DNA from: Patescibacteria group bacterium
GTDB taxonomy: Bacteria > Patescibacteriota > Minisyncoccia > Phycocordibacterales > Phycocordibacteraceae
NCBI GenBank assembly: GCA_018970425.1
Contig: JAGWWK010000001.1
Coordinates: 49,004 to 113,003 of the forward strand
Direction of reading: 5' to 3'
DNA: 64,000 nt
Shown here: piece by piece, positions 1 through 57,481 of the stretch
Numbering within the stretch: position 1 is the first letter of the stretch
How the letters are laid out: every line of letters starts with the position of its first letter
Position numbers and translations under genes: made by a program
The notes under the pieces: model-generated
Databases searched by the model: none
What the model saw: the letters and a program-made list of their open reading frames with translations, nothing else
What the model was told of the DNA's origin: nothing

Positions 1-1
1 C

Positions 2-697
2 GAGTTCCTCGGCTTTATTCTCGCAGAGGATGGGCGCAAAATGAGCAAGCGTTGGGCTAACGTTATAAATCCGAACGATGTGATAGACACGTTCGGTGCG
101 GATGCGTTTAGAACCTATGAGATGTTTATGGGTCCGTTTGAAAATACGATCGCTTGGTCGACCAATGGGCTCGTTGGTACGCGCAGGTTCATCGAGCGTC
201 TGTACCGCGCTCAGGAATACGTCGTGTCCGAGCATGTGCCTCAGCTTGATGTCGCGCTGAACGCCACTATCAAGAAGGTGGGTGATGACATTGCCGATTT
301 TAAATTCAACACAGCGGTGTCGCAGATGATGATTTTGCAAAACGAAATCGATACGATTAAGAAAATTGGAAAGGATCAGTACGCAACATATTTGAAGCTA
401 GTAGCACCATTTGCACCGCATGTTACTGAGGAGCTCTGGCACGAGCTCGGACACACAAGTTCGATACATCTCGAGCCTTGGCCTGAGTACGATGAGGCAA
501 AGCTGGTCTCAAATACGGTGACTATTGCAGTCCAGGTGGCAGGTAAGACACGCGGAACGGTGGCTCTCAGCCGTGGAGCAGGGGAGGAGGAGGTGCTTTC
601 AGCAATCTTCAGCGACCCGAAGCTCATGGTTCACGCTCCAGAAAAACCTACAAAAGTAGTCTTTGTCAAAGACCGAATCATCAACCTCATCCCATAG
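2..697 (+). CDS. leuS: Leucyl-tRNA synthetase, C-terminal part (5' end outside window)
   Basis: Frame is open from position 2. KMSKR (KMSKS-type) motif followed by GADAFRTYEMFMGP and the LeuRS C-terminal anticodon-binding region. Confidence 0.9.
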   Translation, partial: EFLGFILAEDGRKMSKRWANVINPNDVIDTFGADAFRTYEMFMGPFENTIAWSTNGLVGTRRFIERLYRAQEYVVSEHVPQLDVALNATIKKVGDDIADFKFNTAVSQMMILQNEIDTIKKIGKDQYATYLKLVAPFAPHVTEELWHELGHTSSIHLEPWPEYDEAKLVSNTVTIAVQVAGKTRGTVALSRGAGEEEVLSAIFSDPKLMVHAPEKPTKVVFVKDRIINLIP

Positions 698-728
698 TTG
701 CTCGGGGCTGTGGATAACTTTCAGGGTT

Positions 729-757
729 TTGACGGGGGAGTTGATTTGTGCTATAAA
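729..757 (+). promoter_or_regulatory. Sigma70-like promoter TTGACG-N17-TATAAA upstream of the 796 gene
   Basis: Hexamers with 17-nt spacing, read directly from the sequence. Confidence 0.35.
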
Positions 758-795
758 TATATGGTATAGTTTCATCGTTACTACACTAACTACTC

Positions 796-1836
796 ATGGC
801 CAAGCTTACATTCAAGCCAAAAGACGTCTCAAAGCGGCTCGTCGACATTCTCCCGGAGCGCTCTAAAGACGTCATCACTTCCCGCTATGGCCTATTGGGT
901 AAAAAGCAGTCTGAAACTCTCGACGCTATTGGCAAACGCTATGGTATTACACGCGAGCGCGTGCGACAGATCGAGAATCACGCCCTCAAACAGATTCAAG
1001 ACTCCCCTGTCCTAGTCAAAGAAACTGACTCTCTGACTCAACTTGAGGCAGCGATTCGCGAACTGGGTGCCGTGCTACCAGAACACACTATCCTCTCTGA
1101 GTTCGCAACAGACCCTGAAACCCAAAATCACCTCTATTTCCTTCTGGTTGTCGGCAAGCCGTTCGCTCATCGCAAGGAGGACGATCACTTCAAGCGACGC
1201 TGGTACGTCGACGAGTCAGTAGCAAAAGCCGTCGAGGATGCGCTGAAGACCGTCCATGGCAAGGTTAAGTCAACTGATGTCGTGACCGAGGATATGCTGG
1301 TCGACCATGTGCTCTCGTGCATGGAGCGCGTAAATATGAAGTATAAAAATGCGGAGACAGCGAAGCGCTGGCTGGAGCTCTCCTCATGCCTTATGCGTAA
1401 TCCTCTCGGCGAGTGGGGTCGCACTACTGCGCCTGGCATCAAGCTCAAGAATATCCGTGACCATGCGTACGTAGTCTTGAAGCGCCACGGCTCCCCTATG
1501 CACTTCCGTGAAGTCGCGAAGGCAATTGAAAAGACCTTTGGGAAAAAGGCTCATCAAGCTACGACGCACAACGAACTCATTAAGGATGCGGAGCGCTTTG
1601 TTCTTGTCGGGCGCGGGCTGTACGCCTTGAAGGAGTGGGGGTATCGCTCAGGACACGTCATCGACATCATCAAGGCAAATCTCGCGGAACATGGTCCAAT
1701 GACACAAGAGGCAATCATCAAGGCGGTAGGCAAGGAGCGACATGTAAAGCGTAACACCATACTTGTAAACCTTTTGAATAGTAAAGAGATACTCAAGCAG
1801 AAAGACGGAACGTACGCGCTCGCTACAAAACGCTAA
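796..1836 (+). CDS. DNA-binding protein with N-terminal sigma-70 region 4 HTH and C-terminal HARE-HTH winged helix
   Basis: N-terminal LGKKQSETLDAIGKRYGITRERVRQIENHALKQI is typical sigma region 4.2. C-terminal PMHFREVAKAIEKTFG...FVLVGRGLYALKEWGY matches the HARE-HTH of RpoE-delta. Confidence 0.7.
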   Translation: MAKLTFKPKDVSKRLVDILPERSKDVITSRYGLLGKKQSETLDAIGKRYGITRERVRQIENHALKQIQDSPVLVKETDSLTQLEAAIRELGAVLPEHTILSEFATDPETQNHLYFLLVVGKPFAHRKEDDHFKRRWYVDESVAKAVEDALKTVHGKVKSTDVVTEDMLVDHVLSCMERVNMKYKNAETAKRWLELSSCLMRNPLGEWGRTTAPGIKLKNIRDHAYVVLKRHGSPMHFREVAKAIEKTFGKKAHQATTHNELIKDAERFVLVGRGLYALKEWGYRSGHVIDIIKANLAEHGPMTQEAIIKAVGKERHVKRNTILVNLLNSKEILKQKDGTYALATKR

Positions 1837-1870
1837 GCCGACTCCCCTTGCGCTTTGGTATCATGCGCAT

Positions 1871-3109
1871 ATGCGATACCGAGCACTACTCCGCGCTCTG
1901 GCGTTGGGAATACCTACCGTCACACTTCTTCTCATTTACTTCGCGCCATACGTAGCGGCATTTCTCTACACGGTACTCGCCGCTCTCGCTCCGCTCTGGC
2001 TCCCAGTGCTCCTTTTGGTAGTGCTCTGGCCGCTGTGGTTGCGCACAGTGCGATCCCTCTACGTTTCGCGTATACGATATGTGACGCTCGAGCTTAAGCC
2101 CGGTGCGCAGACACCGCGATCTGCGCATCCGATGGAGCTCATTCTGTACTCGCTCTACTTCCGGACAGATGTGTCGCGGGCGAGCGCACTTTGGCGCGGC
2201 GTTGTCCGCGTGCCATGGTCGTTTGATGTGGTCGCAACGAACGGCTCAGTTCGTTTTTTTGTACATGTGCCGGAGAAGCATCGACCCGCTGTTGAGGGCC
2301 GTATCCGCGCAGAGTATCGCGACATAGATATTGACGAAGTGACTGACTATGCACGCGAAATACCATTTAGTCCGTTTGAATGGCGACTCGTGATGCGTGA
2401 GTACGCTCTTGAAAAAAGCGACGCGTATCCGATCCGCACATATGTTGCCGATGAGCATGGAAAAACTCGTAGAGACACATTCCTTGAGCTCGTTGAAGAG
2501 CTGTCGGGCCTCGGTCCTGAGGAACACATATGGATCTCGTACCTTATTCGGCCGCACCAAAGAGACTGGTCCCCGGGCTTTTGGGGCTTTCTTGAGGTTC
2601 CGCGGGATACGCTTCACGAGGATGCATCTCGGGCGATCGCTGCGATCATCGGTCCCTCCGGCGATATGCGCAAGCTTCCGCATTCACAGCAAGAGCTCAT
2701 TGAGCGCATTGAACATGCACTTTCTAAGCCATCGTTTGATACCGGCATTCGTGCAATGTACATCGCACGACGCAATGCGTTCGATGACCGGCGAGCAAGT
2801 ACACTTGATACCCTCTTTGATACGTTTGACGATCCGGTATTGAACGGTATTGCACCCTACGATCCGCGCGAGCGGGTCCCGTGGCCACTTTCTGATGTAT
2901 TTCGCGCTGTACCGATCCTAGATATGGAGTACTTTTTGTCACTGTATCGTCGTCGTGCGTTTTTCGCCCCGCCGTATTATGGTGCGCCGAGCATCTTTAA
3001 TACTGAAGAATTAGCGACTCTCTTCCATCTGCCGCGTGCTGGGAAAACAAGTTCTCTGTCACGAGCGGGCGGCTCTCTCCTTACGCCTCCTGACAATCTG
3101 CCGCTCTAG
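1871..3109 (+). CDS. Hypothetical membrane protein, 2-3 N-terminal TM helices plus a large soluble domain
   Basis: Long ORF with a hydrophobic N-terminus. Stop lies 1 nt before the mltG ATG. No recognised motif. Confidence 0.55.
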   Translation: MRYRALLRALALGIPTVTLLLIYFAPYVAAFLYTVLAALAPLWLPVLLLVVLWPLWLRTVRSLYVSRIRYVTLELKPGAQTPRSAHPMELILYSLYFRTDVSRASALWRGVVRVPWSFDVVATNGSVRFFVHVPEKHRPAVEGRIRAEYRDIDIDEVTDYAREIPFSPFEWRLVMREYALEKSDAYPIRTYVADEHGKTRRDTFLELVEELSGLGPEEHIWISYLIRPHQRDWSPGFWGFLEVPRDTLHEDASRAIAAIIGPSGDMRKLPHSQQELIERIEHALSKPSFDTGIRAMYIARRNAFDDRRASTLDTLFDTFDDPVLNGIAPYDPRERVPWPLSDVFRAVPILDMEYFLSLYRRRAFFAPPYYGAPSIFNTEELATLFHLPRAGKTSSLSRAGGSLLTPPDNLPL

Positions 3110-3110
3110 T

Positions 3111-4001
3111 ATGCGCGCGATTATTGGAACAGTAGTAATAGGAGTTGTCGCCTTCGGGTATCTTTTTGTGGTGAGCGCCCCGCTGCCGTATCCGGTCGGG
3201 GAGGTTCTCAAGGTCGAGCGCGGCCAGACTATTGCGTCAATTGAGCGCGAACTTATGGATCTGAGAGCGATTCGGACTCCCTATGTGTTTTCAGTATGTG
3301 CGCGATTTTTTGGCCCATCACGTGCGGGGTGGTACGCGCTTCATGCGCCAGAGGATGCGTGCATGCTCGCGTATCGCCTAGCGCGGGGAGATACACGACT
3401 CGCAGCACTCAGGATCACGATTCCTGAAGGCTACACTGCCCGTGAGATATCAGAACTCGTGGGTGGTCCCATCGATTCAAATCTTGAAGGATACCTGTTT
3501 CCAGATACGTATGTCATCATTCCCGGAACGCCAGTCGGGGAAATAGTCTCGCACCTGCGCGCGCGCTATGAAGAAGCAGTTGCTCCGCTCCGTCCTGAAA
3601 TACTCGCGAGCGGGCGTACGGAACAGGAAATTCTGACTATGGCATCGATTTTGGAAAAAGAAGCCCGGCTGCCGGAGACGCGACGCATTGTTGCAGGTAT
3701 CCTTTGGAAACGTCTTGATATGGGTATGCCACTTCAAGTTGATGCAGTCTTCGGATACATCCGCGGCATTGATACTTACAGCCCGTCCTTTGCAGACCTT
3801 GAAATTGACTCGCCATACAATACCTACAAAAATGCCGGACTACCACCTGGTCCTATTAATAATCCCGGTATCGATACTATCCGTGCTGCACTGGAGCCTG
3901 AGCCGTCACCATACCTCTACTACTTGACCGGTGCGGACGGGACCATGCACTATGCGCGAACGTTTACAGAACATGTCGCAAACCGTAAGTACTTACGCTA
4001 G
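3111..4001 (+). CDS. mltG: Endolytic murein transglycosylase MltG (YceG family)
   Basis: N-terminal TM, then C-terminal PYNTYKNAGLPPGPINNPG...YLYYL signature. Start chosen at the ATG at 3111 rather than the ORF-track start at 3036. Confidence 0.85.
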   Translation: MRAIIGTVVIGVVAFGYLFVVSAPLPYPVGEVLKVERGQTIASIERELMDLRAIRTPYVFSVCARFFGPSRAGWYALHAPEDACMLAYRLARGDTRLAALRITIPEGYTAREISELVGGPIDSNLEGYLFPDTYVIIPGTPVGEIVSHLRARYEEAVAPLRPEILASGRTEQEILTMASILEKEARLPETRRIVAGILWKRLDMGMPLQVDAVFGYIRGIDTYSPSFADLEIDSPYNTYKNAGLPPGPINNPGIDTIRAALEPEPSPYLYYLTGADGTMHYARTFTEHVANRKYLR

Positions 4002-4038
4002 TCGTTGTATTTTTTCCCGTGGAGCGTAGGATGCAGGC

Positions 4039-5040
4039 ATGGCACGGGTATTTGTAGGCCTATCCGGTGGCGTTGATAGCGCCGTCGCCGCACACCTTCT
4101 TATCGAGGAAGGACATGACGTTACTGGTGTGTTTATACGCGGGTGGGAGCCGGATTTTCTGGCGTGCAGTGGGGCTGCGGATCGCTTGAGCGCCATGCAG
4201 GTAGCCGCGCACCTAGGTATACCATTTCGAACCTATGACCTATCAGAGGAGTACAAAGCGTCAGTAGTCGATGCGTTTGTCGCTGAGTATCGCGCAGGAA
4301 GGACGCCGAATCCAGATGTCTTGTGTAATCGGTTCATAAAATTCGGCAGTGCATGGGAGCGTGCGCGCGCGGACGGAGCAGAGTATTTCGCGACAGGTCA
4401 TTACGCTGACACGAACGGTGCTGTGTTGCGCGCAGCGCGCGATGCAACAAAAAATCAAACGTACTTTCTTTGGACACTCACTCGAGCGGACCTTGAGCAC
4501 ACGCGTTTTCCGCTCGGGAAGATGTTGAAGACCGAAGTACGCGCGCTCGCTCGACGCGTGCGCCTGCCGAACGCCGCGCGTAAAGACTCGCAAGGTCTTT
4601 GTTTTCTCGGAGATGTCGACATGCACCGGTTTCTCAAGCGGTACTTGCCGAGTGAGCCGGGACCGATACTCTACAACGGAGCGACTATTGGCACACATGA
4701 CGGCTCTTGGTTTTACACTCTCGGCCAGCACGTTGCTGCCTCATCAAAAGAGCGCCTGTATGTGGTAGATAAGCGCGGCAATGAGCTGATCGTGAGCGAG
4801 ACGCCCGCTCCGCTCACGCAAGCGACCACGTGCACGCTTCTCAGCGAGAGCTATGTTTCAGGACAGCCTCCGCAGGGCATTGTTCGCGCCGAGTACCGGT
4901 ATCATGGGCCGCAGGTGCGGGCGACTGTAGATCAGTCGATCGTGACATTTGAAAAACCGGTTCTAGTAGCAAAAGGGCAGTCAGTCGTCTTTTACGATCA
5001 GCAGGGAGTGGTCTGCTACGGAGGCGGTATTGTTGCTTGA
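4039..5040 (+). CDS. mnmA: tRNA-specific 2-thiouridylase MnmA
   Basis: PP-loop SGGVDSAV, GHYA motif, KNQTYFLW. Confidence 0.9.
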   Translation: MARVFVGLSGGVDSAVAAHLLIEEGHDVTGVFIRGWEPDFLACSGAADRLSAMQVAAHLGIPFRTYDLSEEYKASVVDAFVAEYRAGRTPNPDVLCNRFIKFGSAWERARADGAEYFATGHYADTNGAVLRAARDATKNQTYFLWTLTRADLEHTRFPLGKMLKTEVRALARRVRLPNAARKDSQGLCFLGDVDMHRFLKRYLPSEPGPILYNGATIGTHDGSWFYTLGQHVAASSKERLYVVDKRGNELIVSETPAPLTQATTCTLLSESYVSGQPPQGIVRAEYRYHGPQVRATVDQSIVTFEKPVLVAKGQSVVFYDQQGVVCYGGGIVA

Positions 5041-5220
5041 CGCTCCGGCTCAGGGTGCTACTATCGACTCTTAACCTTAACAAGTGGTCACATGCTGCTG
5101 AGTAATCAGACCGAAGCGCCGAGCGCCTTCACGGAAAGTCCTTTCTGTTTTTTAACGCTTGCAGTCATAGCGGGTGCGCTCTTGTTTCTAAACCGCAACG
5201 GCGAATCGCCTCGCTAGTGA

Positions 5221-5226
5221 TATGAT
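5221..5226 (+). promoter_or_regulatory. -10 box TATGAT 6 nt upstream of the ATG at 5233 (leaderless architecture)
   Basis: TATGAT-ggcagt-ATG. Confidence 0.4.
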
Positions 5227-5232
5227 GGCAGT

Positions 5233-6054
5233 ATGCCAGAGATAGTTAAAGGCGACGGTTCTCGCGAGCTTTTTAACATCAACAAGCTCGCTGACTCGCT
5301 CATTCGATCAGGTGCTCCGCGCGACCTCGCCATCCGCGTTGCCGAGAACATCGGCTCGACGGTCATTGACGGGATGACGACGCAGGAGATTTACCGCGAC
5401 GCGTACCGCCTGCTCCACAAGGAAGAACGCACGGTAGCGGCCCGCTACTCGATGCGTCGAGCAATACTCGATCTCGGACCGTCCGGTTTCCCGTTTGAGG
5501 ATTACGTATCTGAGCTTATGCGCGCGCGAGGGTATGCCGTGCAAACGCGCGTTATGGTCCCGGGTAAGTGCGCTGATCACGAAGTGGATATCGTCATGCG
5601 CAAGGACAATCGTGTCATCGGTGCGGAGCTTAAGTTTCATAACGAGCCAGGGTACAAAACCGACATCAAGGTAGCGCTGTACGTGCGTGCGCGTTTTTCA
5701 GATATTGAAGCGCGAGGTGAGTCGAGCGGTGAGTCGCACATCCACGAGGGGTGGCTCATAACAAACACCAAGTTTACTGACAATGCTATTGCCTACGCCA
5801 AGTGCGCCGGCATCCATCTCCTTGGCTGGGACTACCCAGAGCGAGGAAATCTTGACGACATTGTGAAAGAAACAAGACTTTACCCCGTCACGGTACTGAC
5901 GTCGCTGACAAGCGCTGAAAAGACTCGCCTCCTCGCCGCGAACATGCCGCTGTGCCACACCGTGGTCGATCCAGAGGCGCTCCGCCGCGCCGGAATACCT
6001 GAGAAAAAGATTGCCGGAGTCATTGCGGAGAGTACGCGCATTTGCAGCATCTAA
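5233..6054 (+). CDS. ATP-cone domain fused to a Mrr-like (PD-(D/E)xK) restriction endonuclease domain
   Basis: N-terminal IVKGDGSRELFNINKL...AARYSMRRA matches the ATP-cone. Middle region has D-x-VDIV...AELKFHN (D/ExK) and a Mrr_cat-like TKFTDNAIAYAK tail. Confidence 0.7.
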   Translation: MPEIVKGDGSRELFNINKLADSLIRSGAPRDLAIRVAENIGSTVIDGMTTQEIYRDAYRLLHKEERTVAARYSMRRAILDLGPSGFPFEDYVSELMRARGYAVQTRVMVPGKCADHEVDIVMRKDNRVIGAELKFHNEPGYKTDIKVALYVRARFSDIEARGESSGESHIHEGWLITNTKFTDNAIAYAKCAGIHLLGWDYPERGNLDDIVKETRLYPVTVLTSLTSAEKTRLLAANMPLCHTVVDPEALRRAGIPEKKIAGVIAESTRICSI

Positions 6055-6057
6055 CGT

Positions 6058-6894
6058 ATGGCGTGGGCAAGCAAAACATTTGATCCGGGTGCGTCGGAGC
6101 CGTTCAAGTTAAGCCGGTCAAAACTGGACCTTTTTACCGACTGCCCACGCTGCGCGTACCTTGATTTGCGTCTCGGTGTGAAGCGCGTCTCCGGACCATC
6201 TTTCACGCTCAATAACGCGGTTGACGAGCTTCTAAAGCGTGAATTCGACGCGCATCGCGTGCGAGGGACCGTGCATCCGCTTGCTGCAGCTTATGGCGTC
6301 AATGCGCGCCCGTTCGATGATCCGCGTATGGAAGAGTGGCGCGATGCCCTGAGGCGAGGGATCGCTACGCATCATAAGCCATCCAACCTTATTCTGCGCG
6401 GCGGTGTGGATGATGTGTGGCAAACGGACGCAGGGGAGCTCATCATCGTAGACTATAAGGCCACATCTAAAAAAGAAGCGCCAAAAACTGCGGGCGATCT
6501 GTACGACTCATATAAAAAGCAGATTGAGATTTATCAGTGGCTATTTCGGCAAAACGGATTTTCCGTATCTCCGACTGCCTACTTTGTGTATGTTAACGGA
6601 CGATCCGATGCTGTGGCGTTCGACGCCAAGCTCGAATTTGATGTGAACTTGATCGCCTATACAGGTAACGACTCATGGGTCGATGATGCGCTCATGCGGC
6701 TGAAGGAAATGCTCATGAGTGAAGAGATTCCGAAAATGGGCACAGCATTCGGTGGGGGTCCATGCGACTTTTGTACCTATCGCGAGGCAGCTGGCAAAGC
6801 ACTTCTTGCGCAGCATGGCACGGTACGTGAGAGTAAGAAGAAAGAGGAAGAAAAACCGCGAAAGCCGGCTCTCGGGACCGGATCATTGTTCTAG
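6058..6894 (+). CDS. Cas4-like / RecB-family PD-(D/E)xK nuclease with four Cys (probable Fe-S cluster)
   Basis: N-terminal LFTDCPRCAYL, then IVDYK, QIEIYQWL (QxxxY), and C-terminal CDFC. Starts 3 nt after the upstream gene. Confidence 0.7.
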   Translation: MAWASKTFDPGASEPFKLSRSKLDLFTDCPRCAYLDLRLGVKRVSGPSFTLNNAVDELLKREFDAHRVRGTVHPLAAAYGVNARPFDDPRMEEWRDALRRGIATHHKPSNLILRGGVDDVWQTDAGELIIVDYKATSKKEAPKTAGDLYDSYKKQIEIYQWLFRQNGFSVSPTAYFVYVNGRSDAVAFDAKLEFDVNLIAYTGNDSWVDDALMRLKEMLMSEEIPKMGTAFGGGPCDFCTYREAAGKALLAQHGTVRESKKKEEEKPRKPALGTGSLF

Positions 6895-22949: not shown

Positions 22950-24076
22950 AGACAGTCGGTCTTTTAATGGCCCTGTTTGGCGATCTTTTGATTCGGTTCT
23001 CCCCGCGGGCAGAACCTCTCACAGGATTTGCTTTTATCGTGCATCCGCGCTCACAATCTGACATACTTAAAAAGTATCCTTTCCTTAGGTATTTTCCGAA
23101 TTGGATTATTGACTCAATCATGCGCAGGCTCTGGCCTGTTACAGTGAGTCGCATAAGCGGACTGAAATCAATAGCTGGAGAAGAGGTATGTGGATTTGTG
23201 ATATCTATACCGCTTACTGCTCGCCAGATGCTGGAACACCGCTCTGCCGCGGTAGCAGCAGTACGCGCGGCTATAGATCTCGGCAAGGCTCGAGGGGTCA
23301 AAATGTTCGGGCTTGGCGGACTCACATCATCGGTTACCAAAGGAGGTATGGACCTACTAGATATACCAGAAATTGTTCTTACGACGGGTCACGCGTATAC
23401 CGGGGTGAATGTCACTCGTAACGTTTTTGAGATAATCAAAAGGCGACAGCAGGCAGTCGATCAGCAGACAATCGCGATTGTAGGGGCTGCAGGGTCTATA
23501 GGCTCAATATCTGCTCAAATCTTAGCTCGTGCAGGGGTACAACGGCTAATTCTTATAGATCTTGAGCGAAAAAAAGAGTTAGTAGAAGCATTAATTCCTG
23601 AACTTATGCGTCTGCAGCCGCTTCTCTGCATTGAGACAACTCACCATCTTTCAGACTTGAAAAAAGCGCACTATATCATAGCAGCTACAAATGCCCCAGA
23701 AGCTCTGATTCATGCAGATGATCTCTCGCCAGGAGCTGTTGTTGTAGATGATGCTCAGCCGTCAGATGTTGCAGACGATGTGCTAGAGCGAAGTGACGTG
23801 CTCGCTATTGAGGCGGGTGTCGTACATACGCCCGGAATTAGTGTAAATTTCGACATGGGGCTCAAGAATCGATATGACAATTTCTGTTGCTTGGCTGAAC
23901 TTTTGATTCTCGCATCCCGATCGTATTCAACGCACTACGTCATCAACCGACCATCACTCGCGCATGTCGATGAAATAGCTGCATGGGGTGATGCATTGGG
24001 TTTTAAGATTGCAAAGTTTCAAAATCGAAAAGCGATGCTGGAACGAGAGCACCTCCAGCGTTGTGGAGTACAATAA
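22946..24076 (+). CDS. Acyl-ACP reductase (AAR)-family NAD(P)-dependent oxidoreductase
   Basis: Blocks FAFIVHP, GLGGLTSS, TTGHAYTGVNVTRNV and IAIVGAAGSIGS align with cyanobacterial acyl-ACP reductase from memory. ATGA overlap with plsC. Confidence 0.65.
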   Translation: MKTVGLLMALFGDLLIRFSPRAEPLTGFAFIVHPRSQSDILKKYPFLRYFPNWIIDSIMRRLWPVTVSRISGLKSIAGEEVCGFVISIPLTARQMLEHRSAAVAAVRAAIDLGKARGVKMFGLGGLTSSVTKGGMDLLDIPEIVLTTGHAYTGVNVTRNVFEIIKRRQQAVDQQTIAIVGAAGSIGSISAQILARAGVQRLILIDLERKKELVEALIPELMRLQPLLCIETTHHLSDLKKAHYIIAATNAPEALIHADDLSPGAVVVDDAQPSDVADDVLERSDVLAIEAGVVHTPGISVNFDMGLKNRYDNFCCLAELLILASRSYSTHYVINRPSLAHVDEIAAWGDALGFKIAKFQNRKAMLEREHLQRCGVQ

Positions 24077-24093
24077 GGATATTCAAAACGACT

Positions 24094-25713
24094 ATGGAGA
24101 TAGATAGCATTAGCGTGCTTGTAGTTGCTGTAGCGGTTCTGAACATTTTGTATGGACTTGTCGTGTATGCACGCAATAGTCTTGATGGTACGAGTCGATC
24201 CTTTTTTATACTAACCATCTGCGTATCACTGTGGGGCGTCAGTATGGTCTCGCTCCGGGCATTTACTGACCCGATCATCGCTACTTGGAGCGCCAGGGCG
24301 CTGTATGCCAGTGCCGCAATGATACCGCTCGCGTCGCTTTACTTCGCGTACATGTTTCCTTCAGAGAGGCGACATATCCGACTTCTCTTGGGGGGATGTA
24401 TTGCGTTGCCTTTTCTGGCAGCATTTTTTATTTCTCTATGGGCCGATGGTTTGATTCAAGGGGTTACTATTGTGCACGGCGTTGAGCCCGTTATTCACTT
24501 CAACTTTGTATTGCATGCGGGGTACGTAGGCTACATTGTTTCTTACTTCCTAGCAGTATTTGTCGTACTGTTCTACAAATACGGAACGTCACGGGGGGTG
24601 CTGCGGGCTCAGATCGCCTATATTCTCGTCGGAACTCTCATAACAACAGGTACTGCTGTCGGTACAAATCTACTCTTGCCTTTTGCCGGAAACTATACAC
24701 TGAATTGGGTAGGTCAAGTTGGAACACTCGCGATGATCACGTCCATAATGTATGCGATCCTCAAGCATCACTTATTTAGTGTAAAAATCATCGGAACGGA
24801 AATTATCGTTTGCGCTCTTTGTCTCGTTCTATTCTCACAAATATTTGCGACCCCTAGCTTTGAAGACCGAGTTCTAGCGTCCCTTATTTTCGTCGCAGCA
24901 ATGATAATTGGGTACCTGCTCGTGAAAAGTGTAAGTCGGGAAGTAGGTCAACGTGAAGAAATAGAGCGACTGTACGAGAAGCTTGAGCGCACCAATGAGA
25001 GACTCACTGAGTTGGATCGGCTGAAATCGCAATTTCTGTCGATAGCGAGCCATGAGCTCCGTGCCCCTCTTACCATCGTGCGAAACTTTATGTCTATTAT
25101 GCTCGAGGGATCGTACGGCAAGATACCACCAGCCGCGGAGGAAGCTGGACGGCAGGTATTTGAGCGCGTGACCGATATGACGCGCGCGGTCGATACGTAC
25201 TTAAACGTATCTCGCATAGAGCAGGGGAAAATTACTTACGCCTTCGCTCCTGCCGATTTATCTGACCTCGTTACTCGAGCGGTAGCTGACATGCGGCCGC
25301 ACGCGGAGCGAAAAGGCCTCGAGCTCGAGTACCAGACCGCGCTACATGCAGACGCGATTCGCGCACGCGTCGATGCGCCTAAAATTACTGAAATTGTCAC
25401 GAATCTGATCGACAACGCTATTCGCTACACCCCGCGAGGATCAATCACGGTTTCGCTAGCAGTCCATGGCGGATCTGCGGTGCTTTCAGTGCAGGACACT
25501 GGCGTGGGTATGACACCACACACGCAGAAGCATCTATTCAAACTCTTTACGCCAGGGGAAAACGCTAAAACTATCAACCCGGCATCAACCGGCGTCGGAC
25601 TCTTTGTGTCGCGCGCGCATGCAGAGGCGCATCGCGGGACGCTTGTTGGTCGCTCGCGAGGGGTAGGGGAGGGATCCACATTTGTCCTCACGATACCGCT
25701 TGCCGGTAGGTAG
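24094..25713 (+). CDS. Sensor histidine kinase with a multi-TM N-terminal sensor domain
   Basis: H-box SHELRAPLT, N/G boxes (DNAIRYT, DTGVGM), 6-7 N-terminal TM helices. No response regulator nearby. Confidence 0.85.
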   Translation: MEIDSISVLVVAVAVLNILYGLVVYARNSLDGTSRSFFILTICVSLWGVSMVSLRAFTDPIIATWSARALYASAAMIPLASLYFAYMFPSERRHIRLLLGGCIALPFLAAFFISLWADGLIQGVTIVHGVEPVIHFNFVLHAGYVGYIVSYFLAVFVVLFYKYGTSRGVLRAQIAYILVGTLITTGTAVGTNLLLPFAGNYTLNWVGQVGTLAMITSIMYAILKHHLFSVKIIGTEIIVCALCLVLFSQIFATPSFEDRVLASLIFVAAMIIGYLLVKSVSREVGQREEIERLYEKLERTNERLTELDRLKSQFLSIASHELRAPLTIVRNFMSIMLEGSYGKIPPAAEEAGRQVFERVTDMTRAVDTYLNVSRIEQGKITYAFAPADLSDLVTRAVADMRPHAERKGLELEYQTALHADAIRARVDAPKITEIVTNLIDNAIRYTPRGSITVSLAVHGGSAVLSVQDTGVGMTPHTQKHLFKLFTPGENAKTINPASTGVGLFVSRAHAEAHRGTLVGRSRGVGEGSTFVLTIPLAGR

Positions 25714-25913: not shown

Positions 25914-26855
25914 ATGTCAAAAAAGCGTCGCCTCACTGGACTTCAACCCTCCGGGAATCTCCACATTGGTAACTACTTTGGAGCACTGAAGCCATTTGTC
26001 GATGAGTACCGAAACTACGACAGTATTTTGATGGTCGTGGACTATCACGCGCTTACGTCACTTAAAGACGGCCCACAGCTCAGGGCACACATCCTCTCGG
26101 CAGTCCGCGACTATCTAGCAGTAGGCATAGATCCTAGCTCGCTCGTCCTCTTTAAGCAGTCAGATGTGCTTGAGCACACAGAGCTTGCGTGGATCCTTGA
26201 CTGCCTTGTCACGGTCCCGTTTCTTATGCAAGGGCACGCGTACAAAGATAAACTCGCGAAAGGACTTGAGGCAAATGCAGGACTTTTTACATATCCAATG
26301 CTCATGGCCGCCGACATTCTCCTGTATGACACAGAACTGGTACCCGTAGGCGAAGATCAGCGTCAACACGTCGAGTATGCGCGAGAAGCAGCAGCAAAGT
26401 TTAATTTGGCTTTCGGGCAGACGTTTCTTGAACCAAAGGAGCAAATTTCTGCGAATGTAGGAGTCGTCCCGGGTACAGACGGTCTAAAGATGAGTAAAAG
26501 CTACGGTAATACTATCCCACTTTTCGGCAACAGGGATGAGACCGCGCAGGCAGTAATGAGCATCGTGACAGATTCAGCTGGAGACGTCCCCGCTAACGTA
26601 TACGCCATACACAAACTCTACAAGACTGAAGCAGAGCTTGCGCCGCTCTATGAATCCAACAAGGGTAAGTACAAGGCACTAAAGGAGGCGCTGATAGAAG
26701 ATATAGAAGCGCATGTAGCACCTATGCGCGAGAAGCGTGCGTCGATCTCAGACGACGATGTGAAGCGCGTACTAGTCGAGGGTGCAGAAAAAGCGCGAGC
26801 GATTGCGAGCGCTAAGATGGCTGACGTTCGCCAAAAAATCGGCGTTGCGCTATAG
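25914..26855 (+). CDS. trpS: Tryptophanyl-tRNA synthetase
   Basis: GLQPSGNLHIGNYFG and KMSKS motifs. Confidence 0.95.
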   Translation: MSKKRRLTGLQPSGNLHIGNYFGALKPFVDEYRNYDSILMVVDYHALTSLKDGPQLRAHILSAVRDYLAVGIDPSSLVLFKQSDVLEHTELAWILDCLVTVPFLMQGHAYKDKLAKGLEANAGLFTYPMLMAADILLYDTELVPVGEDQRQHVEYAREAAAKFNLAFGQTFLEPKEQISANVGVVPGTDGLKMSKSYGNTIPLFGNRDETAQAVMSIVTDSAGDVPANVYAIHKLYKTEAELAPLYESNKGKYKALKEALIEDIEAHVAPMREKRASISDDDVKRVLVEGAEKARAIASAKMADVRQKIGVAL

Positions 26856-26862
26856 TAAAAAG

Positions 26863-28185
26863 ATGGCACGAACACTCATACGGGATCTCAAAAGCGCGGT
26901 AGGCAAAGAGGTAACGATCAAAGGCTGGGTCGATGTTCGGCGCGATCAGGGCAAACTAATCTTTTTCGACATTCGCGATCGCTCGGGGAAGGTACAAGCC
27001 GTTGTGCTCCCCAAGAGTCCTGCTCTGGACGTTGCAAAAGACGCAGGACTCGAGTATGCAGTTGAAGTCAAAGGCAAGGTAAATGCACGACCAGAAAAAA
27101 ACGTAAATGCAAAAGTTCTTAATGGAGATATTGAGCTTGAAGTCGCCGAAGTGACTGTGCTTGGAAAAGCCGAGCCGCTTCCGTTCGACATGTCAGCAGA
27201 TGGATTTAATCTTGACCTCACGACCGAGCTCGATCATCGTGCGCTCACTCTTCGTCATCCGCGTCTTCAGGCCATATTTAAAGTCAGCGCGGTCATTATT
27301 GACAGCTTCCGCGAGTTTATGAAGTCGCAGGACTTTTTTGAGTTCCAGGCTCCATCGATAGCCCCCGCGACCGCTGAAGGTGGAGCGGAAGTCTTCCAAG
27401 TTCAATATTTTGATAAAAAAGCGTATCTATCGCAGTCGCCGCAGCTCTACAAGCAAATTGTAATGACGGCGTTTGAGCGCGCATTCTCTGTAAACAAGGT
27501 CTTTCGTGCAGAGCCATCAGCTACGACTCGTCACCTCACTGAAATAGTCATGCTCGATGCTGAGATGGGCTTTATTGACTCGTGGACCGATGTTCGCGAC
27601 ATGGCTGAAGCTACAGTGCGCTACATCCTTACTCAAGTTGGCACAAAATGCAGTGCTGAACTCGAGTTTCTCGGGGCTACGCTACCGACAATGATCGATA
27701 AAACACCGACGTACTCGCTTAAGGAAGCGTTCGAAAAATTGGGCATACCTGAAGATAAGGATCTTAACCCTGAGCAAGAGCGTGCCTTGTGCGAAGTGGT
27801 AAAGAAGGAGACTGGCTCTGACTTCGTATTCGTTTGGGGCTATCCAACGAAAAAGAAGCCATTCTACGTGTATCCACACCCAGAAAATCCAGAAGTGAAC
27901 GAAGGTGTTGACCTGTTGTGTCGCGGCGTCGAGTGGCTCTCAGGTGGCCGACGTATAAATGACTACGAGCAGCTTATGAAGCATGTGAACGAGTGGCAGA
28001 TGGATCCAAAGAAGATAGAAATGTTCCTCGAGGCGTTCCGCTACGGTGTGCCACCTGAAGGCGGGTTTGCGTTCGGTGCAGAGCGCATGACCATGCAGAT
28101 ACTCGGACTTAAGAACATTCGCGAGGCAGCTATGTTCCCCCGCGACATGCACCGAATAGACCACCCGTTAAGTGCTCTGGACTAG
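26863..28185 (+). CDS. aspS: Aspartyl-tRNA synthetase, archaeal/eukaryotic type (class IIb); AsnRS not excluded
   Basis: N-terminal OB fold (VTIKGWVDVRRDQGKLIFFDIRDRSG) and a roughly 440-aa class II core. Confidence 0.8.
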   Translation: MARTLIRDLKSAVGKEVTIKGWVDVRRDQGKLIFFDIRDRSGKVQAVVLPKSPALDVAKDAGLEYAVEVKGKVNARPEKNVNAKVLNGDIELEVAEVTVLGKAEPLPFDMSADGFNLDLTTELDHRALTLRHPRLQAIFKVSAVIIDSFREFMKSQDFFEFQAPSIAPATAEGGAEVFQVQYFDKKAYLSQSPQLYKQIVMTAFERAFSVNKVFRAEPSATTRHLTEIVMLDAEMGFIDSWTDVRDMAEATVRYILTQVGTKCSAELEFLGATLPTMIDKTPTYSLKEAFEKLGIPEDKDLNPEQERALCEVVKKETGSDFVFVWGYPTKKKPFYVYPHPENPEVNEGVDLLCRGVEWLSGGRRINDYEQLMKHVNEWQMDPKKIEMFLEAFRYGVPPEGGFAFGAERMTMQILGLKNIREAAMFPRDMHRIDHPLSALD

Positions 28186-55933: not shown

Positions 55934-57481
55934 CTAGATATTCAAAAGTTCTTTAACCCGCTGACGATCAACAGCCCAGAGGAACGTGCCAAGCCGCGGA
56001 CCAGTGTCTTGCCCTATGAGTAGCCTATATACGTCTTTAAAAAATGCCCGTTGCTCCTTTTTTAGGATTGCCTCATCTATGCCGGAGCGCTTCGGTATAT
56101 CGTAGACCAATACCTCAAGGTCACGGATAGACTCGCTGCCGGCATCACGAAGGGATTCGCGCAGTTTCAGAATTCTCGCTTTTTGCTCTTCTGACAGCGT
56201 GGTTGCATACGCGCTCTGCACTGACGCACAGAGCTCAACGCGCTCGTCGGGGTTGTACTTGGTGAGCCAGTTGCGTGCCAGTGAGAGGCGTCGCGAGACA
56301 CTCAGCACATCGTAGTTTAGATCCATTCCAGCAAGAAGATCCGCTAACTTAGTCGGCTGCCATTGCACAATCTGACCGAACCCCACTGCCTGGCGAAACG
56401 GGATCGGGTTTCCTGTATGGAGCGCGTCATACTCGTCGTACTGCCGGTAGATTTCGGTATCGAACGCAAGCTGAAACGCATGGTCGGGAGACCGCCTGAG
56501 GTAGAGCCAGGTAAGGAGTTCTGGCTCATAAATTTCAAGCAGCTCTAGTGGAGACACCGCATTTCCTTTTGAACCGGACATTTTAGCTCCGAGCCCCTGG
56601 AGACCGACAAACTTGTATTCAACAAATGTGGGAGCCGGGTACTTAAAAATGCGAGGTGCGATTGTAGACGCGACGTCGTAACTTCCGCCCGGAGATGCGT
56701 GATCATGCCCGCCAGGCTCAAATACAACTGATTCGTGCTTCCAACGCATCGGCCAATCCACCTTCCACGCAAGCTTTGCGATTCGCTCTTTAGAAAGGTC
56801 TACGGTGTCCGTCTTTCCAGTGTCGATACAGTAGTATGTGACGGTTGAAGCGCCGTCGTACGACTGAATCTTCGTGGTGTCTTTTCCCGTAAACCGCGAG
56901 TAGAGCGCGATCGGGTAGTACGTAGCGCGGAACTCACTCGGCTCGATACCCTTTTCTGACTTTCCTTTTTCAGTCATAAAAGAGAGGAGAATATCTGCGA
57001 TTACTTCCCGATTCTGTAGTGCGTGCGTAATTGCGGCATCATATGCTCCAGACTCGTACGCCTCTGTCTGATTGCGGTACTCTATGGGCATCGATAATTG
57101 CCGCATCGCCTCTTCAAATGGCGCCTCAAAATGCTGCGCGTATGAGGCGTGGCATCCAAACGGATCAGGAATCTTAGACAGCGGCTTGCCAATGTGCTCC
57201 GCAAACGACTCAGGCACGCCAGCTGGCACTTTTCTCAGCCGATCAAAGTTGTCCCAAGAAAATAGGAGTCGCGCTTTTTTTCCCTTCTCAGTTAACGCGC
57301 GGTACACCTCGTACGATGTACTGATGTCGCGAAAATTGCCGAAGTGTACTACCCCGGACGGACTGATCCCTGCGGCGCAGGTGTACTCTAACGCATCGGG
57401 ATGCGCGGTGATAATGACATCAGCAACGGCACTGCCCCAGTGAATTCCGTGAGGTACTTGGCTGAGATCAAATCGCGCCAT
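55934..57481 (-). CDS. lysK: Lysyl-tRNA synthetase, class I (archaeal type)
   Basis: GISPSGVVHFGNFRD (HIGH-type) and KMSGSKGN (KMSKS) motifs. Roughly 515-aa LysRS-I layout. Confidence 0.88.
   Translation of the reverse strand: MARFDLSQVPHGIHWGSAVADVIITAHPDALEYTCAAGISPSGVVHFGNFRDISTSYEVYRALTEKGKKARLLFSWDNFDRLRKVPAGVPESFAEHIGKPLSKIPDPFGCHASYAQHFEAPFEEAMRQLSMPIEYRNQTEAYESGAYDAAITHALQNREVIADILLSFMTEKGKSEKGIEPSEFRATYYPIALYSRFTGKDTTKIQSYDGASTVTYYCIDTGKTDTVDLSKERIAKLAWKVDWPMRWKHESVVFEPGGHDHASPGGSYDVASTIAPRIFKYPAPTFVEYKFVGLQGLGAKMSGSKGNAVSPLELLEIYEPELLTWLYLRRSPDHAFQLAFDTEIYRQYDEYDALHTGNPIPFRQAVGFGQIVQWQPTKLADLLAGMDLNYDVLSVSRRLSLARNWLTKYNPDERVELCASVQSAYATTLSEEQKARILKLRESLRDAGSESIRDLEVLVYDIPKRSGIDEAILKKEQRAFFKDVYRLLIGQDTGPRLGTFLWAVDRQRVKELLNI

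Follow-up and report, generated by a model that had tools for sequence, protein, structure and literature searches.

In primary sigma factors (sigma-70/SigA), region 4 contacts the bases of the -35 promoter element and forms the C-terminal end of the protein. HARE-HTH (HTH, helix-turn-helix) domains are general DNA-binding modules of restriction and defence enzymes, and the same fold is found in the N-terminal domain of the delta subunit of RNA polymerase (RpoE) in Firmicutes, where an acidic tail accompanies it. In another group of systems, represented by TraM-TraD, TrwA-TrwB, PcfF-PcfC and FtsK gamma/KOPS, a sequence-specific DNA binder is coupled to a hexameric membrane ATPase of the VirD4/FtsK type; the accessories of the coupling proteins are ribbon-helix-helix proteins or single winged helices, and are carried with relaxases on plasmids or integrative and conjugative elements. 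Region-4-type HTH modules are also found outside canonical sigma factors, as in MzaA of the MZA anti-phage system and in BrxL, where a sigma-HTH module has been described (PMC12839542). Here we describe a locus in a 64,000-nucleotide stretch (the window) of a Patescibacteria group bacterium (assembly GCA_018970425.1, contig JAGWWK010000001.1, positions 49,004 to 113,003, forward strand), in which a gene for a protein of 346 amino acids (aa) with a sigma region 4 and a HARE-HTH domain, the sigma-4/HARE protein, is followed by a gene for a membrane protein of the DUF8128 family. With a probability of about 0.4, the sigma-4/HARE protein would be a subunit that binds specific DNA sequences and is coupled to the scaffold of a membrane ATPase.

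The sigma-4/HARE gene is a complete coding sequence (CDS) on the + strand (796-1836), as seen from its open reading frame (ORF), its Pfam matches and homologues of the same length and layout. Sigma region 4 (4.1 and 4.2) occupies aa 8-70 (817-1005), with the Pfam Sigma70_r4 match at aa 17-68 (E 1.6e-13; 50.3 bits against a gathering cutoff of 24.1) and a recognition helix, T52-E60, that reads TRERVRQIE. Region 4 is followed by a linker helix (aa 71-92) and, in the middle of the protein, by two modules of helices and strands (aa 93-139 and 140-214; together with the linker 1006-1437), modelled by AlphaFold2 (AF2) with a predicted local distance difference test score (pLDDT) above 90; no Pfam family matches the middle modules above its gathering cutoff. 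The HARE-HTH winged helix is at aa 221-281 (1456-1638; PF05066, E 3.5e-9, 37.4 bits against a cutoff of 25.9), and a C-terminal winged-helix-like module of about 55 aa follows it at aa 288-342 (1657-1821), with three helices and two strands in the AF2 model (pLDDT about 90) and a weak Pfam match to a winged-helix dimerisation domain (E 0.0096). The mean pLDDT of the whole model is 85.7. Comparison of the five modules by hhalign gave no internal repeat (probabilities below 5%), so the winged helices are not recent duplicates. The protein is basic (isoelectric point, pI, 9.6), and so are three of its modules, with a pI of about 10 for sigma-4, 10.1 for HARE and 9.9 for the C-terminal module.

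An earlier reading of this DNA by a model (the original prediction) had described a region 4 HTH near the N-terminus without regions 2 and 3, and a HARE-HTH at the end of the protein. The region 4 HTH is there as described, and the Pfam search found neither Sigma70_r2 nor Sigma70_r3 in the 346-aa protein, r2 being absent even at E<=1; the NCBIfam sigma models align only through their last approximately 60 positions, with about 50 bits against cutoffs of 240-800. The HARE-HTH is likewise present, but the end of the protein is formed by the C-terminal module.

Over 4.1 and 4.2, and even over the short tail after 4.2, the first module has the fold and sequence of region 4 of primary sigma factors, to which it is closest, with 30-35% identity to SigA of Taq and S. 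coelicolor (GITRERVRQIE here, aligned to GVTRERIRQIE). The recognition helix TRERVRQI is almost invariant across homologues: in an alignment of 79 sequences with overall identity down to 33%, the sigma-4 positions conserved at 97% or more are T52-I59, R30, T41, L42 and G46. Within this helix, R53, E54, R57 and Q58, which are invariant, presumably correspond to R584, E585, R588 and Q589 of sigma-70, which make the -35 base contacts, and Y/F31 and L33 align with F563 and I565. A second cluster of conservation is formed by the HARE core, with 17 positions at 97% or more; helix 4.1 and the middle modules are far more variable, the middle modules being the least conserved parts. In sigma factors region 4 is C-terminal, whereas here it is N-terminal and heads a winged-helix array, and because regions 1.2, 2 and 3 are absent the protein can neither bind core polymerase as a sigma factor nor read a -10 element. 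It is a full-length, basic, multi-module protein with a predicted function in DNA binding, and is not a sigma factor.

In another explanation, already raised in the original prediction, the gene would be the C-terminal fragment of a disrupted sigma factor gene; the lack of regions 2 and 3 beside region 4 is the sole point in its favour. This explanation is refuted. The leucyl-tRNA synthetase gene leuS ends 98 nt upstream, no sigma region 2 was found by tblastn anywhere in the window, and region 4 is N-terminal and followed by 275 more conserved residues. Homologue lengths are also uniform: a homology search gave 7,999 significant matches, of which the best 120 have 279-354 aa, nearly all of them 338-354, and a profile search of 1.84 billion representative proteins gave 713 clusters at E<=1e-30, of which the best 150 have nearly all 330-380 aa. 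The N-terminus, FKPK, is conserved among homologues, and this, together with leuS directly upstream, excludes a broken sigma gene.

Among the same best 120 of 7,999 matches, Sigma70_r4 is found in all and HARE-HTH in nearly all, all named sources are Patescibacteria, and the NCBI product name, where one is given, is "sigma factor-like helix-turn-helix DNA-binding protein". At least 567 relatives were confirmed when one genome per species was scanned, with named hosts that include Kaiser-, Taylor-, Nomura-, Campbell-, Niyogi-, Staskawicz-, Yanofsky-, Uhr-, Moran-, Nealson- and Buchananbacteria as well as Paceibacterota. Three metagenome-assembled contigs carrying the gene (L019, L036 and L055) were deposited as Thermodesulfobacteriota, Spirochaetaceae and Gammaproteobacteria; the gene order around the gene is of the Patescibacteria type, and these contigs are probably mis-binned. 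Many labels of "uncultured Candidatus Saccharibacteria" likewise sit on Parcubacteria-type synteny. Among the matches listed, the family was found here in Patescibacteria only.

The second gene begins 34 nt past the first CDS and encodes a protein of 412 aa (1871-3109, + strand; TAG at 3107-3109), which is assigned to PF26449 (DUF8128) by precomputed annotation of the identical 412-aa protein and its homologues. It starts with a membrane hairpin of two long hydrophobic helices with Arg-rich ends (aa 2-66, 1874-2068; AF2 helices 2-38 and 40-66), and Kyte-Doolittle windows above 1.6 are confined to aa 4-60. A soluble alpha/beta domain without a P-loop follows (aa 67-390, 2069-3040), and the protein ends in a disordered tail (3041-3106, pLDDT below 50) with a conserved ...R...PPxNLP motif, in which even members of 23-30% identity share an invariant R398, P407 and P411 and an almost invariant L410. 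Judged from its sequence, this tail looks like a short docking peptide for some partner. The original prediction was right that a 412-aa membrane protein stands here with its stop 1 nt before the ATG of mltG, but its statement that the protein has no recognisable motifs did not survive, as the protein belongs to a Pfam family and has a fold like that of the VirB4 N-terminal domain.

This fold was identified by two structure-based methods, with EccE of type VII secretion as the next best match. The VirB4-family matches are full-length TrwK chains only, and no TrwB or ATPase-domain-only VirB4 chains are among the matches listed. The N-terminal domain of TrwK comprises residues 15-400, and VirB3, a protein with two transmembrane helices, wraps around it (PMC9259494). 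The DUF8128 protein ends after the part that resembles this domain: it has the N-terminal fold of VirB4 and not its ATPase domain, and no C-terminal P-loop was found in it, either as a Pfam or NCBIfam match or as a conserved GxxxxGK[ST] in alignments. It thus differs from VirB3-VirB4 and from EccE in lacking an ATPase domain, a sequence-level match to solved structures and a type IV secretion system (T4SS) cluster around it. Residues 66-234 match positions 24-189 of phrog_5156, a phage/plasmid family of 824 positions (E 3e-11), a match which suggests that longer, unsplit relatives exist; phrog_5156 itself may be such a relative, with the ATPase half included.

The pairing of the two genes, which the original prediction had proposed from this one locus, is conserved in both directions. 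Two sets of loci were examined, one of 80 species genomes retrieved by the sigma-4/HARE profile, of which 70 had sufficient sequence, and one of 80 metagenome loci retrieved independently by a DUF8128 motif, of which 61 had room upstream. In the first set, DUF8128 was one of the three ORFs that follow on the same strand in 65 of 70 loci and the immediately next ORF in 63, with a median gap of 76 nt; in the reverse set, the sigma-4/HARE gene was directly upstream of DUF8128 in 58 of 61. Two arrangements around the pair were seen. In that of the window's clade, the order is leuS, sigma-4/HARE gene, DUF8128, mltG, mnmA (31/57 and 47/58 loci), and in the other it is secD, secF, sigma-4/HARE gene, DUF8128 and an ATPase gene (24/57 and 6/58 loci). 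Among 33 loci with less than 42% identity, DUF8128 is retained in 27, leuS in 1 and mltG in 2, so that the two-way adjacency of the pair outlasts all other synteny. In the window, mltG (mltG/YceG, 3111-4001, + strand; Pfam YceG, E 2e-62) probably shares a transcript with the pair, yet it stands outside the conserved unit. A scan found no terminator-like site on the + strand in the 34-nt gap between the two CDSs.

The ATPase encoded by the third gene of the secDF-type arrangement matches TrwB_AAD_bind (51.4 bits against a cutoff of 20.5) as well as TraG-D_C, the TraM-recognition domain, T4SS-DNA_transf and a zinc finger of the treble-clef type; none of the NCBIfam equivalog models reaches its cutoff. 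In most members the Walker A motif is found from about aa 33-39 onwards, and the protein has no transmembrane segment or hydrophobic N-terminus. The family is large and well conserved, and its members are named "type IV secretion system DNA-binding domain-containing" or "CxxC-x17-CxxC domain-containing protein". At L047:8210-10042 and 26 other loci (cluster c5), the ATPase carries a treble-clef zinc finger of the CxxC-x17-CxxC kind as well as a long tail rich in Lys and Pro, is 50-66% identical between loci, much above the preceding DUF8128 gene, and at times overlaps that gene. A recent survey found homologues of VirD4-type coupling proteins in 2,918 of 3,035 genomes of the Candidate Phyla Radiation (CPR, Patescibacteria); only 148 of 5,713 such homologues were near virB4, the survey raised the possibility of co-option for other functions, and VirB3-VirB4 fusions were not found (bioRxiv 10.1101/2025.01.22.634366).

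In the reading that we favour, and that covers the larger part of the observations, the sigma-4/HARE gene would head an operon and have a consensus-type promoter of its own, with DUF8128 as the constant second gene. The DUF8128 protein would be membrane-anchored, with a cytoplasmic domain similar to the scaffold-forming N-terminal domain of VirB4, and it lacks the ATPase. The sigma-4 head would read a fixed TTGACA-like hexamer, the basic HARE and C-terminal winged helices would hold adjacent DNA, and the whole protein would dock on the DUF8128 scaffold at the membrane, so that specific DNA sites would be tethered or presented to a membrane-bound motor of the VirD4 type. In the window's lineage this motor would be encoded elsewhere or be absent. 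Such a role would be analogous to that of TraM, TrwA or PcfF with their coupling proteins, or to that of the gamma domain of FtsK. Domain content and gene completeness, the partner's fold, linkage of the genes in both directions, and the conserved recognition helix and TTGAC box are shown here, whereas the DNA specificity of the head, the contact between the two proteins, and the involvement of the ATPase and its substrate are all steps that we infer. The TrwB_AAD_bind and TraG-D_C matches are in line with the comparison to coupling-protein accessories, which differ in that they act in a plasmid or ICE setting, whereas the context here is chromosomal and housekeeping, with no relaxase seen; the binder here is a sigma-4-headed array, the ATPase has no membrane anchor, and coupling is deduced from gene order only.

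Several observations weigh against coupling to a membrane ATPase. No homologue of the ATPase was found in the window by tblastn with 27 family members, and it is absent from the flanks throughout the mltG-type clade; the core unit may therefore lack the motor. The likeness of DUF8128 to VirB4 comes, apart from the phrog_5156 match, from predicted structure only, at 8-11% identity, and a DUF8128 profile search of PDB sequences gave noise only. We know of no case in which the N-terminal domain of VirB4 itself binds DNA-binding proteins. The AF2 model is weak within the HARE-HTH, with a pLDDT of about 50 at aa 250-280. Finally, a rare fusion to a sigma factor, described below, and a near-universal consensus -35 box upstream of the gene point at least equally to transcription.

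This box is part of a promoter-like element, P1, with TTGACG at 729-734, a 17-nt spacer, TATAAA at 752-757 and a TG at 749-750 that makes it an extended -10 promoter (729-757, + strand), just where the original prediction had seen it. A promoter scanner placed a second element, P2, overlapping the first (741-770, + strand; TTGATT from 741, an 18-nt spacer, TATAGT ending at 770, and TG at 762-763), and in an 86%-identical locus (L001), too, two extended -10 promoters overlap, with an offset of about 12 nt. Consensus promoter and terminator sites between 500 and 4200 are no more numerous than in shuffled controls, and for this reason the promoter call rests on comparative conservation. Of 77 homologous genes, 75 have an exact TTGAC in the upstream 200 nt, against an expectation of 0.2 per region from base composition; its median distance from the start codon is 74 nt, and in 59 of 75 it is followed by a 17-nt spacer and a -10-like hexamer, usually with the TG. 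The family consensus, TTGACt-N17-TGnTATAAT, is matched by P1. When only intergenic sequence was counted, TTGAC was found in 72 of 75 regions, compared with 15-22% of other intergenic or divergent upstream regions of the same loci, these control regions being based on crude ORF calls.

Such conservation, together with the place of the gene at the head of its operon, could also mean that the protein is an ordinary operon regulator, whose sigma-4-type HTH would recognise the TTGAC box in the promoter of its own gene and thereby autoregulate an operon for a membrane complex. At least two boxes are present in 26 of 75 regions, as might suit an operator; however, this excess is small (35% against 16% of box-containing controls) and the spacing is irregular, and tandem -35 boxes are therefore not claimed as an operator. 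TTGAC is moreover simply the -35 core expected of a strong promoter, the crude ORF calls behind the control regions limit the comparison, and a recognition helix that stays invariant down to 33% identity, in a protein with five modules in 346 aa, would be unusual for a repressor of one operator. We therefore consider simple autoregulation unlikely.

The same promoter-type sequences, and the sigma-like head itself, bring up a further explanation, in which the protein would be an RNA polymerase accessory factor or mimic of sigma region 4 that binds the beta-flap tip, the -35 element or both, competing or cooperating with the primary sigma factor; the HARE domain would contribute a contact like that of delta, and DUF8128 would act as a membrane anti-sigma factor that sequesters the protein. 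The original prediction had already put forward a promoter-specific accessory factor or an anti-sigma mimic. The closeness of the module to primary sigma factors and the invariance of the residues aligned with the -35-contacting positions of sigma-70 favour this explanation. The likeness to the delta subunit, which the original prediction had drawn, is weak: the HARE-HTH is common to both and the delta model TIGR04567 gives a weak match (E 3e-6), but this scores 27.2 bits against a cutoff of 42, the domain is internal here and N-terminal in delta, and the basic protein has no acidic tail. Helix 4.1, which would contact the flap, is much less conserved than the helix that would read DNA. The partner matches no family in the Pfam and NCBIfam libraries searched, in which anti-sigma families would be included, and its VirB4-like fold and the frequent VirD4-like ATPase would be left unexplained. 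A sigma factor gene is found near the pair in just 1 of 160 loci.

Another link to transcription is P0390 (L164:5001-7301), an uninterrupted ORF of 766 aa in which a complete RpoD/RpoS-like sigma factor (regions 2, 3 and 4) is joined to a member of the sigma-4/HARE family, and which, from its sequence, would carry two -35-reading heads. The fusion is present on two contigs (35% GC) and is a single, divergent cluster with no adjoining DUF8128; its neighbours have no Pfam families on record and no PHROG matches, except for an RNase III and a DUF3761 protein. As a candidate for a cellular Rosetta stone beside DUF8128 it was rejected, as the next gene encodes a 441-aa protein that is not DUF8128. 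Three other fusions could be artefacts of assembly or gene calling, namely P0371 (the sigma-4/HARE protein with an additional zinc ribbon and a DnaA domain IV), P0263 (an apparent read-through from secF) and P0256 (where AAA_14 replaces sigma-4 and the linker). Since each of the four is a single cluster, they are treated as leads and not as evidence. Taking these points together with those on the delta subunit and on the partner, a role as polymerase accessory factor is possible but doubtful.

The modules of the pair are also of kinds that are common in defence systems and mobile elements. HARE-HTH and sigma-like HTH modules are frequent in restriction, BREX and MZA systems, parts of VirB4 and VirD4 are known from conjugative elements, and the best NCBIfam and PADLOC matches of the protein by E-value are to MzaA, in the region-4 part only. 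The ATPase weakly matches the mad8 and HerA models of PADLOC, and a PHROG family matches DUF8128, as mentioned above. However, the match to MzaA is confined to its region-4 end and scores 51 bits against a cutoff of 800, and there is no defence context here: the pair has fixed housekeeping neighbourhoods (leuS, mltG and mnmA, or secDF, pgk and alaS) in 567 or more species genomes, the protein carries neither a nuclease nor a methylase domain, no full-length homologue was found among 50,697 phage records, and DUF8128 has no PADLOC match. A function in anti-phage defence or in a mobile element is thus very improbable.

The window as a whole is a housekeeping stretch, with alaS, dnaK, dnaB, genes for penicillin-binding proteins and several aminoacyl-tRNA synthetases. 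It opens with the 3' end of leuS (1-697, + strand; Pfam Anticodon_1 and tRNA-synt_1), and the full LeuS, read on identical contigs, has 759 aa. A search of positions 1-6000 for known RNA elements found none. Further downstream, a 273-aa protein (5233-6054) has weak ATP-cone and Mrr_cat (restriction-endonuclease-like) matches and occupies the same place after mnmA in 21 related loci; it is directly followed by a protein of the PDDEXK_1 nuclease family (6058-6894). Elsewhere in the window are a class I lysyl-tRNA synthetase (tRNA-synt_1f; 55934-57481, - strand) as well as a class II synthetase of the Asp/Asn/Lys type (26782-28185, + strand), and a histidine kinase with an N-terminal 7TM sensor (HisKA_7TM; 24061-25713, + strand), which is among the few signalling proteins here.

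Literature searches found no study of the sigma-4/HARE family, of DUF8128 or of the gene pair. The domain combination is already in databases and the single modules are familiar, whereas their combination in this form, its restriction to Patescibacteria, and an operon with parts derived from secretion ATPases are undescribed. At its most ambitious, the proposal would be that the sigma-4/HARE protein, DUF8128 and the anchor-less VirD4-like ATPase form an undescribed chromosomal DNA-handling machine of Parcubacteria-type Patescibacteria. Its membrane motor would be of a split VirB3-VirB4/VirD4-like type, and a domesticated, -35-reading sigma head would choose the substrate DNA, with TTGACA-like hexamers doubling as signals at which DNA is loaded or tethered, to be imported, exported, segregated or handed over to the CPR type IV secretion system. 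We regard this extended version as speculative and, as it stands, unlikely.

The Patescibacteria are tiny cells that make up a large share of bacterial diversity, and their regulation and cell biology are almost unknown. In this family, the best-understood DNA-reading module of bacteria, with its base-contacting residues frozen, has been reused in a protein that is unable to be a sigma factor, and this reuse is tied to a membrane protein derived from parts of a secretion ATPase. Because the predicted DNA target is known beforehand, both of the functions that follow from such an arrangement are directly testable with recombinant proteins. If -35-like hexamers are read by the protein, it could compete or cooperate with the housekeeping sigma factor at promoters and would then represent a new layer of global control in organisms that are poor in regulators. 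It could alternatively link specific DNA sites to a membrane motor, and this would provide a function for the "orphan" VirD4 homologues that are found in about 96% of CPR genomes.

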